Positions 27,295 to 30,857 are shown, counted from the stretch's first letter. The stretch: 47,695 nucleotides of DNA from Kiritimatiellia bacterium (GCA_017457625.1 JAFTHC010000072.1:1-47695); one strand, 5' to 3'. The notes: generated from the letters alone by a model not told the origin. Program-made: numbers and translations.

Positions 27295-28182
27295 ATGCAG
27301 TGGGGAGCCGCGAGCGACGTCGGCCGGCGCCGGCGGAACAACGAGGACGCGTGGGGCGCGTTCCCGGAGGCCGGCGCGTGGTGCGTGGCGGACGGCATGG
27401 GCGGCGCCGAAGGCGGAGAGACCGCTTCCCGGGCGGTCGTGTCGGAACTCGGCGCCGCGCTGCGCCGGTGGGGGGCGCTCGTCCCGCCCCTGTCCCTGCC
27501 GGACCGGGCCGAACTGTTCGCCCGGGCCGCGGACGCGGCTTCGGCCTGGATTTTCGACTGGGCCGCCCGCAACGGCGCGCCCGGCGCCGGAACGACGCTC
27601 GCGGCCGTTCTTCTCGACCCGGCCCGGCCGGGGCGCCCGCTTGCGCTCCACGCGGGCGACAGCCGCCTCTACCGGCTCCGGGGCCGCCGGCTTTCGCGGA
27701 TCACGGAGGACCACTCCGTGGCGGGGTTGGCCGGCGTCCGCGACGAATCGGAACTCCCGCCCGGCTTCCGGAATCTCGTCACGCGGGCCGTCGGCGTCCG
27801 GCCGCGCGTCGAACTGGAAAAGACGCCGTTCCGCCTCGCCCCGTCGGACCGGCTCCTGCTCTGCAGCGACGGGCTCTACCGGATGGTTTCCGACGGAGGA
27901 ATCGCGGAGGTTCTCCACGCCGCCGCGACGCCGGAGGAGGCCGCGGCGGCGCTCGTCGCCCGCGCGAACGACGCCGGCGGGGAGGACAACGTCACGGCTC
28001 TCGTCCTGTTCGCGCCGGAGCGCTTCGGCCGCCCGGCTTCCGTCCGCCCCCGTCTCGGCGCGGCCGGACTCGACGCTCTCGCCGCGGCCGCCGGGACGGA
28101 CGAGGACGAAACGGAGGACACGCGCCCGACGGCGCAAACGGAGCCGGCGGCGGCCGGCGCAACGGAAAGGAAAGGACCATGA
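27295..28182 (+). CDS. PP2C-family Ser/Thr phosphatase
   Basis: [54 protein letters not shown]. Starts 2 nt after the previous stop. Confidence 0.9.
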
Positions 28183-30857
28183 ACGGCAAGATCGGCGCGT
28201 TCCGGATCGAGGGAACGATTTCCGGCGGAGGCGGACAGGGGTCCGTGTTGCGCGCGCGGTGCGAAGAACCGTGCGGCATGGACGGAGTCGCCCCGGGCGA
28301 CGTCGTGGCGCTCAAGGCCGTGCCCGTCGCCGAACCGGACGCGGCGGCCCGGCTGGAGTCCCTGAAACGGCGCGTGGACCGGCTCGCGGGCGTCCGGCAT
28401 CCCGGCGTCGTGCGCCACTTCGGCTGTTTCGCGGCGGAAGGCGGCGTGGGACAGACCCTTCTGGTCACCATCATGGAACTGCTGGACGGCGACACGCTGG
28501 CGGCCCGGATCGGACGGGCTCCGGGCGGTCTCGACGCCGAAGAGGTCCTCCGCCTCTCGCGGTCCGCTCTCGGCGGACTCTCCGCCGCGGTCGCGGCCGG
28601 CGTTCTGCACCTCGACCTGAAACCGTCCAATCTCGTGTTGTGCCGCGACGGAAGGGCGACGTGGATCGATTTCGGGCTGGACGGCGACGCGACCGGCGAG
28701 GGCGTCCGGGGGTCGTTCGACTACATGGCCCCCGATTTTCTCGAGCGGCTGCGCCCGACGCCCGGCTTTTCCGGGGACGAGCGGTCCGACGTTTTCAGCT
28801 TCTGCGTCGCCGTCTACGAAGCGGCGACCGGGCGGACCCCCTACCGCCACCGGTCGCCGGGCGATTCCACGCAGGCCCGCGTCTCCTGGTATCGGCGCTG
28901 GAACGAAACGGACGCCGACGCGGCGGCTCGGCCGGACGGCGGCCCGCTGCTGGTGGAGGACTTCCGCCTCTGGCAGCTGGAAGGGCTGGCGCCCGTCCTT
29001 CGCAAGGGGCTTTCGCCCGACCGCGCCGGCCGATACGGCGGTTTCCGCGAACTCGAAGAGGCGTTTGCGGCCGTCCGGACCCGCCGGCTGGATGGCCGGC
29101 ACGATTCGTATCGGCTGTCGCATTGCGTCGGAAAAGGCGGTTTCGGGGCCGTGTTCAAGGCGATCCGCGAGTCCGACGGGCAGCCGGTGGCCGTGAAGTG
29201 CCGCCTCCGACCCGGCGGGGACGACCGTTTCGAGCGCGAAATCCGGGAACTCGGAAAGATCGACGATCCGCGCGTCGTCGGCCGCCTCGACGACGGACGG
29301 TCCGGCGACAGCCGTTTCCTCGTCATGCAGTTTCTGGACGGCATGCCCGGCTCGTCCCTGCGCGAACGGCTCCGCGAACCGTCCGCCCGTTTCGGACTCA
29401 TGACGGCGGAGGTCCTGCCTGCGTTCGAGCGCTACGCGAAAGGACTGGCGGCCCTCCACGCCGACAACGTCATCCACCGCGACCTGAAGCCCGCGAATCT
29501 CTACTTGCCGGCCGGCCGGCCCGGGGACGCCTGTATCATGGATCTCGGAATCGTGAGAACCGACGCGACCGCCACCGCGGACGGTCTGCCGCCCGGAACG
29601 CTGGACTACATGGCACCCGAGGTCGTCGAAGGGAACAGCCGCGGAGACGCGGCCTCGGACCTGTATTCCCTGGGACTGTGTCTCTACGAAGCCATCGTCG
29701 GGCAGCCGCTCTTTCCCCGGCTCCCTCCCGGGGAAAAGGGATGGGCCGAATTGTTCCGCCGGGTTTCCGCCAAACGGAATCCGGACCTCTCCCAGCTTTC
29801 CCGCATCCCCGGACTCGAGGCGCTGGTCCGGGACATGGTCGACCCGGATCCGGCCCGGCGTCCCGCCGGCGCGGAAGCGGTCGCGGCCAGGATCCGCGGC
29901 CTGTTGTCGAAACTGCCGAAACCGGCCGCGGAGGATGCGGCAACCGCGGAAACCCGGTTTACCGCGGAAACCCGGTTCGGGGAACCGGGCGACTTGCCGG
30001 AAGCGGCGCGGAAGAAACGAATCCGCATCGTTCCGCTCACGTTGGCGTTCGCCTTGGCGGCCGCAATCGCCGTTTTGGCCCTGCTTCCCGGACCGGAACC
30101 CGCGACGCCGCCGGAATCCGCGTCCGTGCCGGCGCCGACCGAGGTGCCTGCATCCGCGCCCGCACCCGCGCCGGAACCCGCACCCGCGCCGGAACCCGCA
30201 CCCGCGCCGGAACCCACGCCCGCGCCGGAACCCACGCCCGCGCCGGAGCCCACGCCCGCGCCGGAGCCCGCACCCGTGCCGGAACCCGCACCCGCGCCGG
30301 AGCCCGAGCCTGTCCCCGCGCCGGAGCCCGAGCCTATCCCCACGCCGGAGCCCGAGCCTGTCCCCGTGCCGGAGCCCGCGCCCGTGCCGGAGCCCGAGTC
30401 TGTCCCCGCGCCGGAGCCCGAGCCTGTCCCCGCGCCGGAGCCCGAGCCCACGCCGGAGCCCGCGTCGGAGCTCGAGCCCGCCTCCGCGCCGTCCAAACTG
30501 GACTTCTCGAACCTTCTCGTCGCCCCCATCCAGAAGCCAAACGAACTGCCCGCGCCGGAGCCGCCGGCCGCCGTCGAGACGGCGACGGTCCGTTTCCACA
30601 ACGCGAACCGGTTGCACGAAGCCCATGTCACGGCGGTAGCTCGCCCGGGGTGGCGGCAAACCGTTCCGCCGGGCGGAACCGTGTCCGCGACCGAGCCCCT
30701 TTCCTTCTGGCGCGGAACCCGGTTCCGTGCGGAGTTGTCGGGAAATCCAAACTACAATCCGATCCAATTCGACGTGAAAATCGCGGATCCGTCCGGCGTG
30801 AACGTCGTTCCGCTCCGGTTCGAATACCGGCCGAGGACGCGAACCATTTCGCCGTGA
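28179..30857 (+). CDS. membrane Ser/Thr protein kinase with two tandem kinase domains, Pro-rich linker and extracytoplasmic C-terminal domain
   Basis: Domain 1: [22 protein letters not shown] (HLD at 28608-28616), IDFGL, YMAPD. Domain 2: [21 protein letters not shown] (HRD at 29475-29483), MDLGI, YMAPE. TM: [20 protein letters not shown]. Followed by (PAPEPx)n and a ~125 aa tail. ATGA overlap with the PP2C gene. Confidence 0.9.
30156..30462 (+). repeat. in-frame 18-nt and 24-nt tandem repeats encoding PAPEP(A/T) and PAPEPEP(V/I) units
   Basis: gcgccggaacccgcaccc reiterated with point variants, then gcgccggagcccgagcctgtcccc-type units. The repeat is coding, within the kinase extracytoplasmic linker. 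Confidence 0.9.

Follow-up and report, generated by a model that had tools for sequence, protein, structure and literature searches.

We analysed a window of 47,695 nt (the whole stretch GCA_017457625.1 JAFTHC010000072.1:1-47695, from a Kiritimatiellia bacterium, an uncultured gut-type organism) and, in particular, two adjacent plus-strand genes that encode a PP2C-type Ser/Thr phosphatase and a membrane Ser/Thr kinase in which two Hanks-type kinase domains, here called D1 and D2, follow each other in one chain (Table 1). The phosphatase gene extends from the ATG at 27295 to the TGA at 28180-28182, in the frame of an open reading frame (ORF) spanning 26578-28182. The kinase gene starts at the ATG at 28179, in the frame of an ORF spanning 27300-30857, and is preceded by GGAAAGGA, a ribosome-binding-like site. 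The two genes are the last of a co-directional operon that begins near 5.4 kb and in which gaps or overlaps between genes are of a few bases. No promoter-like sites were seen between 26000 and 31200, and a convergent GH2-like gene (30904-33066) lies after the kinase gene.

An initial annotation of the region had reported that the kinase start and the phosphatase stop overlap as ATGA, that the kinase contains two full catalytic cores, and where the motifs of these cores lie (HLD at 28608, DFG and APD in D1; HRD at 29475, DLG and APE in D2). We found the overlap and each of the motifs at exactly the same positions, and the two halves of the kinase, scanned alone, gave each its own match to Pfam Pkinase (gathering cut-off 31.7 bits).

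Table 1. Features of the phosphatase-kinase pair and FHA proteins encoded upstream in the same operon
Feature	Position	Strand	Basis and remarks
PP2C (PPM-type) Ser/Thr phosphatase, 295 aa, predicted soluble	27295..28182	+	Pfam PP2C_2, motifs and hydropathy
Tandem-kinase membrane Ser/Thr kinase, 892 aa, final gene of the operon	28179..30857	+	ORF; Pfam Pkinase twice
Kinase domain D1, aa 4-298, atypical Hanks-type	28188..29072	+	Pkinase 74.3 bits (E 1.3e-20); confident kinase fold in AlphaFold2 model; GGGGQG 28224, VALK 28305, HLDLKPSN 28608, DFG 28668, APD 28728
Kinase domain D2, aa 303-578, canonical PknB-like	29085..29912	+	Pkinase 119.3 bits (E 2.5e-34); GKGGFG 29130, VAVK 29187, HRDLKPAN 29475, DLG 29541, APE 29613
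Juxtamembrane linker with Thr-containing duplication and basic stop-transfer stretch RKKRIR	29913..30026	+	Repeat search
Single transmembrane helix, aa 617-639	30027..30095	+	Hydropathy peak 2.6
Pro-rich PAPEP-type repeat spacer, predicted outside the membrane	30154..30491	+	Tandem Repeats Finder
C-terminal orphan region of ~118 aa, predicted beta-rich	30501..30854	+	No Pfam match
CpaF/KilF-like motor ATPase with N-terminal FHA domain	7849..9540	+	Pfam T2SSE 1.7e-64, FHA 5e-15; likely start ATG 7849
Membrane protein with one FHA domain	11329..12813	+	Pfam FHA 2.7e-7; FHA at 11401-11592
Membrane protein with two FHA domains	12810..15218	+	Pfam FHA 1e-29; FHA at 12897-13091 and 13218-13400

D1 and D2 share 30% identity (E 2e-18), and for both of them the closest solved structures are those of mycobacterial PknB and PknA (for D2 with E about 1e-22 to 1e-20). 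The alignment to the Hanks subdomains, which the initial annotation had proposed as a check, showed both domains to be complete, with one substitution of interest in D1. Precisely, D2 combines its Pkinase score with all the hallmarks of a Hanks-type Ser/Thr kinase: a GKGGFG G-loop, the beta3 Lys (K340), the helix-C Glu (E354) within a bacterial RF..E motif, the catalytic loop HRDLKPAN (D435, N440), DLG in the place of DFG (D455), APE (E481), the subdomain IX Asp (D494), the subdomain XI Arg (R561) and a Thr-rich activation loop of the dual-Thr kind. D1 has the corresponding GGGGQG, K46, HLDLKPSN (D146, N151), DFG (D164), APD, D204 and R285, and its helix-C Glu is replaced by R65, which aligns with E59 of PknB and with E354 of D2. 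Hence D1 belongs to the Hanks-type kinases by its Pkinase score and its catalytic triad (Lys, HRD-Asp and DFG-Asp), and it lacks the Lys-Glu salt bridge between beta3 and helix C while it retains the ATP-binding and catalytic residues. The initial annotation had suggested that the duplicated kinase could be a regulatory pseudokinase plus a kinase; for D1 a regulatory, pseudokinase-like role fits the residue pattern, but D1 is not a pseudokinase in the strict sense, since in the bacterial Ser/Thr kinase atlas (bioRxiv 10.1101/2025.01.12.632604) a pseudokinase is defined by an incomplete triad, with one or more of VAIK-Lys, HRD-Asp and DFG-Asp missing, and D1 has kept all three.

This asymmetry between the two domains was also found in their relatives. 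In an alignment of 121 close homologues the D2 hallmarks (K340, E354, D435, N440, D455, E481) were invariant, with DLG instead of DFG in most members, and K46, H144, D146, K148, N151, D164 and F165 of D1 were invariant as well. The helix-C position of D1 was occupied by Arg in 114 of the 121 and the DFG motif read DFE in 111, whereas the catalytic loop read HRD in 120, the HLD of the window kinase being the sole exception; no conserved activation-loop Thr was found in D1 in this alignment. We then considered 27 family members spanning the class and compared them with 85 other bacterial kinases. D2 was K-E-HRD-N-D(L/F)G in 27/27 and the beta3 Lys of D1 was likewise kept in 27/27. The helix-C position of D1 was occupied by Glu, Gln and Arg in eight members each and by some other residue in the remaining three, and its DFG position read DFG (13), DFD (8) or DFE (6); HLD was present in three of the 27, HRD being the family norm. 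Among the 85 other kinases, all but one had the helix-C Glu (84) and all but two the DFG-Gly (83). The triad of D1 was retained by the window kinase and by 26 of the 27 members. The only member seen in which both D1 Asp residues are lost (L130, class genome G156; HRN and NFD) carries a true pseudokinase in the D1 position, next to an intact D2, and its PP2C gene is convergent, not upstream. Mean pairwise identity was 0.55 for D1 versus 0.62 for D2, and D1 is under strong constraint despite its divergence.

The source genome is a fragmented metagenome-assembled genome (MAG) of 293 contigs, 87% complete, and these features could lead one to suspect that an assembly or sequencing error had fused two neighbouring kinase genes, an outcome that the initial annotation itself had named as fatal to its proposal. 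We give this explanation a practically negligible probability. In fact, more than 120 independently assembled database proteins span both domains without interruption, with a link of about five residues between D1 and D2, at 39-49% identity and with at least 93% coverage of the 600-aa double-kinase region. Where these homologues are named, they come from Kiritimatiellae or Lentisphaerae. In addition, the tandem kinase was found in 27 of the 201 genomes, and 21 of the 103 genera, sampled from the same class, with matches free of internal stops, and one of the genomes that carry it is closed. For the family as a whole an artefact is effectively refuted, and the homologues argue for a real and conserved design.

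As regards its distribution, a phylum-wide sample of 301 genomes gave eight matches, all of them in the same class, and none of the ~200 genomes of the phylum that lie outside the class yielded the tandem kinase. There was also no match in the same-genus representative and in two same-family genomes, so the module is patchy and accessory; the window genome has one copy. We built a tree from 54 family domains and, as outgroups, 85 other bacterial kinase domains obtained from a contig search with generic kinase motifs (HRDxKPxN, GSFDYMAP). All the D1 domains formed one clade (support 0.98) and all the D2 domains another (0.998), the two of the window falling inside their respective clades. Since D1 and D2 are mutually closest (D1+D2 versus the rest, 0.997), they derive from an old internal duplication that preceded the spread of the family. 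Two other tandem-kinase ORFs, L008 (from a Thermoanaerobaculia MAG) and L044, belong to other phyla, are unrelated and fall outside the D1+D2 clade; therefore chains with two kinases arose more than once in bacteria and the architecture as such is not unique. By its place in the two clades, its single transmembrane helix after D2 and its adjacent PP2C gene, the window pair belongs to a family of PP2C plus tandem-kinase receptors of the Kiritimatiellia. Within this family it is the smallest version seen (a kinase of 892 aa and a phosphatase of 295 aa) and it appears to be a reduced variant, with a soluble PP2C and a short kinase ectodomain unrelated to that of its relatives.

The phosphatase matches Pfam PP2C_2 with 43.5 bits (E 3.4e-11; cut-off 24 bits) and has the motifs RRNNED, DGMGG, GTT, GDSR, SDG and DN; by this score and by its metal-binding Asp motifs it can be assigned to the PP2C/PPM phosphatases. 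It consists of the catalytic domain and an acidic tail, and it has no transmembrane helix, since its maximum hydropathy is 0.99. In contrast, the partner PP2Cs of the relatives, 374-1299 aa in total length and mostly with a large ectodomain, have a transmembrane helix after the catalytic domain in 22 of 22 cases, at about aa 275-455. The window PP2C would hence be a truncated, soluble variant from which anchor and ectodomain have been lost. We considered p352 (26234-27292) as a possible detached PP2C ectodomain, and dropped it because a tblastn search with p352 gave nothing in the loci of the relatives. The missing anchor of the phosphatase, together with R65 at the helix-C Glu position of D1 and the rarity of HLD within the family, had been overlooked in the initial annotation.

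A PP2C gene lies directly upstream of the kinase gene in all six of the close homologues whose loci we compared, and adjoins it in 17 of 20 loci from the class (15 co-directional and upstream, 2 convergent or divergent), which indicates that phosphatase and tandem kinase are a conserved pair. In the assembled part of the window genome (87% complete) the PP2C of the pair is the sole PP2C_2-type gene; elsewhere the genome encodes four SpoIIE-type PPM proteins, about ten Pkinase genes and five FHA domains. In the same genome (G000), on contig C149 (11468-13609, minus strand), a Pkinase gene adjoins a SpoIIE-type PPM phosphatase gene.

Beyond D2, the kinase chain continues with the linker, helix, spacer and orphan region listed in Table 1. 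The linker contains a perfect 18-nt tandem repeat (29943-29977) that encodes TAETRF twice and looks like a recent duplication, and the relatives have the Thr-rich motifs PETSPT and PTVAT at the equivalent place; these juxtamembrane Thr motifs are possible phospho-acceptor or FHA docking sites. The transmembrane helix, which had been placed at about 30027-30090, proved to be the only segment of the kinase above a hydropathy of 1.6. Because this single hydrophobic helix comes after the basic stretch RKKRIR, the kinase domains are assigned to the cytoplasm, and the protein is predicted to cross the membrane once, with the Pro-rich spacer and a small orphan domain on the outer side. The PAPEP-type linker, also noticed at the outset, corresponds to an array with repeat periods of 18, 24 and 90 nt and about 18 copies of the 18-nt unit.

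The outermost region had been described as an extracytoplasmic domain of no recognisable family, and we could find neither a Pfam family nor a credible homologue for it. Among 1.84 billion representative proteins its sole match was the repeat protein P0123 (E 2.5e-7), which aligned four times and which we judged spurious; a BLAST search against 119 family members gave nothing below E 1. A single-sequence AlphaFold2 model of the region reached a predicted local distance difference test (pLDDT) value of 45, so no fold can be called. The ectodomains of 75 of the 119 relatives (P0008-P0122) contain one to three copies of a ~90-aa repeat with Cys residues (V.C...G....L.PG...C.Y......Q...F.V.....LP.P..W), which has no Pfam name besides occasional CarboxypepD_reg matches; this repeat is absent from the window kinase, whose C-terminal region did not match the profile built from it. 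Some other relatives (L122, L123) have an FGE-sulfatase ectodomain.

For the double-kinase region (aa 1-610) we obtained an AlphaFold2 model from an alignment of 55 homologues, with a pLDDT of 87.6 and a predicted template modelling score of 0.87. The model contains two kinase folds, D1 and D2 being separated by a link of about five residues with pLDDT 97-98, and in it the two domains are rigidly joined; residues 462-468 of the D2 activation loop are disordered. In a Foldseek search of the PDB, the single domains gave target-normalised template modelling scores (TM-scores) of ~0.8 against PknB and PknA. Only two entries, which ranked first, aligned over both domains, namely 9P9U (a duplication of the EGFR kinase domain) and 4OLI (TYK2 JH2-JH1). 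These alignments had a root-mean-square deviation of 20-22 A and TM-scores of 0.32-0.41, therefore the predicted D1-D2 orientation differs from that of both entries.

The operon upstream of the pair encodes, in this order, an RcpC/CpaB protein (SAF), a secretin (weak match), an ATPase of the FHA-CpaF type, TadB, TadC, a protein with one FHA domain and a protein with two, followed by TadE-/TadG-like pilins, a lipase-like protein, a radical SAM enzyme, a second ATPase without FHA domain, a secreted protein of unknown type and then the PP2C and the kinase. In Pfam terms, TadB and TadC correspond to two T2SSF matches, the pilins to TadE and Tad, and the second ATPase to T2SSE. Four FHA domains had been noticed upstream of the pair, and they do lie in the same operon, distributed over the three proteins of Table 1, which are candidate readers or targets of the phosphatase-kinase switch. 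By its domain content, the operon is of the Kil-type, FHA-rich and Tad-like kind. The initial annotation had instead drawn on PpkA-type kinases and the assembly of the type VI secretion system (T6SS). The neighbours of the pair are Tad/Kil-like pilus genes, not a T6SS gene cluster, and a search of the genome, which is 87% complete, detected no member of the VipB/TssC family; without a T6SS sheath gene, the T6SS pathway can serve as an analogy only.

We also considered whether this context recurs. Tad genes with the same FHA set were found within 10 kb of the pair in five of the six close homologues. In a closed genome from the same taxonomic order the gene set is the same, with the pair at its 5' end, not at the 3' end. 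In one locus of the class (L123, 4292-8071, minus strand, genome G192) FHA, kinase, kinase, transmembrane helix and FGE-sulfatase domains occur in a single chain, and the helix-C Glu of D1 is canonical. In another (L141, a relative of P0038) a gene for an FHA-sigma54 activator (FHA, Sigma54_activat, HTH_8; 13616-15019) comes directly after the tandem kinase and before the Tad operon; there the kinase may have the additional role of controlling pilus-gene transcription. The tandem kinase was present in 7 of the 11 class genomes with a homologue of the double-FHA protein and in 26 of 200 overall; this is not a statistical test, because the genomes are related.

Two-partner secretion genes were a further observation at some of these loci. 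In L143 (a relative of P0087) they stand directly upstream of the pair (ShlB and a TPS/DUF5649 giant protein), in L142 (a relative of P0047) an ShlB gene is at the locus edge, and in L141 a DUF5649 giant protein occupies the position that matches that of L143. They may represent an alternative cargo or a second regulated system. As for base composition, horizontal transfer of the window operon was rejected, since its GC content (70-75%) equals the genome mean (70.4%). At the ends of the window (1-5000 and 40000-47695) the GC content is 61-63%, which is less than the 5th percentile of the genome's 5-kb windows (64.3%).

We consider it moderately probable that the pair is a reversible phosphothreonine switch of the class-restricted family described above, built into a Tad/Kil-like pilus operon. 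In such a switch, D2 would be the signal-regulated catalytic engine and would autophosphorylate its own activation loop and the juxtamembrane Thr residues. D1 would be mainly a built-in regulatory or scaffolding partner of D2, resembling the partners of kinase/pseudokinase pairs; it would probably bind nucleotide and might have some weak or specialised activity. Through the phosphothreonines, the FHA domains of the motor ATPase, which is CpaF-like, and those of the two FHA membrane proteins would be recruited or modified; this engagement would gate the assembly or the firing of the pilus, and the PP2C would reset the system. A bolder version, which we regard as possible rather than probable, is that D1 is an allosteric partner that binds nucleotide without phosphotransfer and holds or releases D2, an independent bacterial counterpart of JAK-type receptors, and that the receptor senses contact or the envelope and sets off FHA-gated Tad/Kil-like machines when the FHA domain of the motor ATPase docks on juxtamembrane phosphothreonine.

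Several points weigh against this interpretation. The substrates, the activities of D1 and D2 and the input signal are all matters that we infer, and gene order is what suggests that the pair acts on the proteins of its locus. The mutual orientation of D1 and D2 is a prediction. All but one of the 27 members keep the D1 triad, which is also compatible with D1 being a second kinase of full activity. No Tad gene lies within ~12 kb of the kinase in 16 of the 20 class loci, and 19 of the 26 kinase-bearing genomes have no detectable homologue of the double-FHA protein. Finally, as the sole PP2C_2-type phosphatase of a genome that has about ten kinase genes and, elsewhere, five FHA domains, the PP2C could act more broadly.

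The last three of these observations are what one would expect from a general-purpose Ser/Thr kinase and phosphatase with many targets, comparable to PknB/PstP or PrkC/PrpC, for which lying in the pilus operon would be a coincidence or reflect only one of its outputs. We consider such a role unlikely. The pair lies inside or beside an FHA-rich Tad operon in the window and in most of the close homologues, and the association survives its move to the opposite end of the gene set; its absence from the sampled genomes of the same genus and family is more in keeping with an accessory module than with a housekeeping regulator, and the genome has its four SpoIIE-type PPM phosphatases besides. A different objection concerns D1, which could be as active as D2, with the two domains forming a relay or each serving its own substrates, as in tandem kinases of the RSK/MSK type. 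The Lys, HRD-Asp, Asn and DFG-Asp of D1 are kept in 121/121 close homologues and in 26/27 members across the class, D1 retains the G-loop, the subdomain IX Asp and the subdomain XI Arg, and its conservation nearly equals that of D2. On the other hand, the helix-C Glu is lost in 19/27 members and the DFG-Gly is changed to Asp or Glu in 14/27, two positions nearly invariant in the 85 other kinases, a conserved activation-loop Thr is missing, and in the L130 lineage neither the catalytic Asp nor the DFG-Asp is left. Two fully active kinases seem to us a possible rather than a probable account of the family.

The gene content also recalls KKP, the kinase-kinase-phosphatase module of Pf prophages. 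Its discovery came from a search for two Pkinase genes in a row behind a PP2C_2 gene, and it includes an FHA domain (PMC11341870), so the pair could in principle be a toxin-antitoxin or anti-phage module with its two kinases fused. PADLOC kinase models do match both domains, as generic kinase-domain matches that we did not take as evidence of defence. KKP consists of two separate cytoplasmic kinases with a cold-shock domain and FHA in a prophage toxin/antitoxin setting (PMC11341870), whereas the window encodes one fused membrane kinase, a single-pass receptor with an ectodomain and without FHA domain, in a pilus operon. Furthermore, the Pfam scan detected no cold-shock domain, there are no prophage genes around the pair, where Tad genes and glycoside hydrolases are found instead, the GC content of the region is that of the genome, and synteny with pilus genes extends across the relatives. 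What remains in common is a PP2C_2 phosphatase with two Hanks-type kinase domains and the involvement of FHA, and a KKP-like function is in our opinion very improbable.

Returning to the switch on a pilus machine, several described systems can be compared with it. In the T6SS, PpkA, PppA and Fha1 form a kinase/PP2C/FHA switch on an envelope machine. As in Pseudomonas aeruginosa, the window combines a membrane Hanks-type kinase that has a periplasmic part and a PP2C, within a cluster for an envelope machine with FHA components, and the logic of a kinase that switches on and a phosphatase that switches off, read by FHA domains, would be the same. The window differs in the machine, which is Tad/Kil-like, in the two kinase domains, in the lack of a vWA-type periplasmic domain and in the spread of its four FHA domains over three proteins, among which is the motor ATPase. 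The closest described machine to the window operon, in a comparison of domain content, is Kil of Myxococcus xanthus, a Tad-like apparatus for contact-dependent killing (Seef et al. 2021, PMC8460266). The authors of that work stress the FHA-fused KilF ATPase and the many FHA proteins, and propose that FHA-rich Tad-like machines, among them Kil and the tadC locus of Bdellovibrio, are fired by an upstream phosphorylation cascade as yet unidentified (PMC8460266). They describe no kinase or phosphatase for Kil (PMC8460266), whereas the window operon encodes both, and the window has in addition a second, FHA-less ATPase, a radical SAM enzyme and a lipase-type cargo gene.

The phosphatase and kinase themselves can be compared with PknB/PstP of Mycobacterium tuberculosis and with other receptor STK/PP2C pairs of this kind. 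D2 resembles PknB in sequence, in predicted fold, in the RF..E motif of helix C and in its dual-Thr activation loop, and the two kinases share a Thr-rich juxtamembrane linker, a single transmembrane segment and an ectodomain; the neighbouring PP2C is membrane-anchored in the window's relatives. The second kinase domain, the non-PASTA ectodomain, the soluble PP2C and the location in a pilus operon rather than in a cell-wall/division cluster set the window apart. In animals (JAK, RSK) and plants (tandem kinase immune receptors), proteins that carry two kinase domains in one chain have been studied in detail. TYK2 JH2-JH1 (PDB 4OLI) and plant tandem kinases (WTK1/Yr15, PMC6170490) have, like the window kinase, a divergent kinase-like domain N-terminal to a canonical one. 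There is, however, no specific homology, the window domains being closest to bacterial PknB/PknA, and in D1 the triad is complete, which sets it apart from JH2 and the plant pseudokinase domains; the duplication in the window arose independently within a bacterial class, and the predicted orientation of D1 and D2 is different. In the searchable literature we found no description of a bacterial tandem-kinase family, only papers on plants, animals and phage KKP, and none of the kinase behind FHA-rich Tad machines; the words 'tandem' and 'two kinase' are not used in a 2025 atlas of ~300,000 bacterial Ser/Thr kinases.

A kinase and a phosphatase in one operon with an FHA motor and FHA membrane proteins provide concrete candidate enzymes and substrates for FHA-rich Tad machines. 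Within the family, D1 forms a series from canonical through salt-bridge-less to true pseudokinase next to an unchanged D2, which makes it a good system for the study of pseudokinase evolution, and the small size of the window copy is convenient for expression. Even if the pair served generic signalling, it would still be a tidy case of domain duplication in a bacterial kinase.

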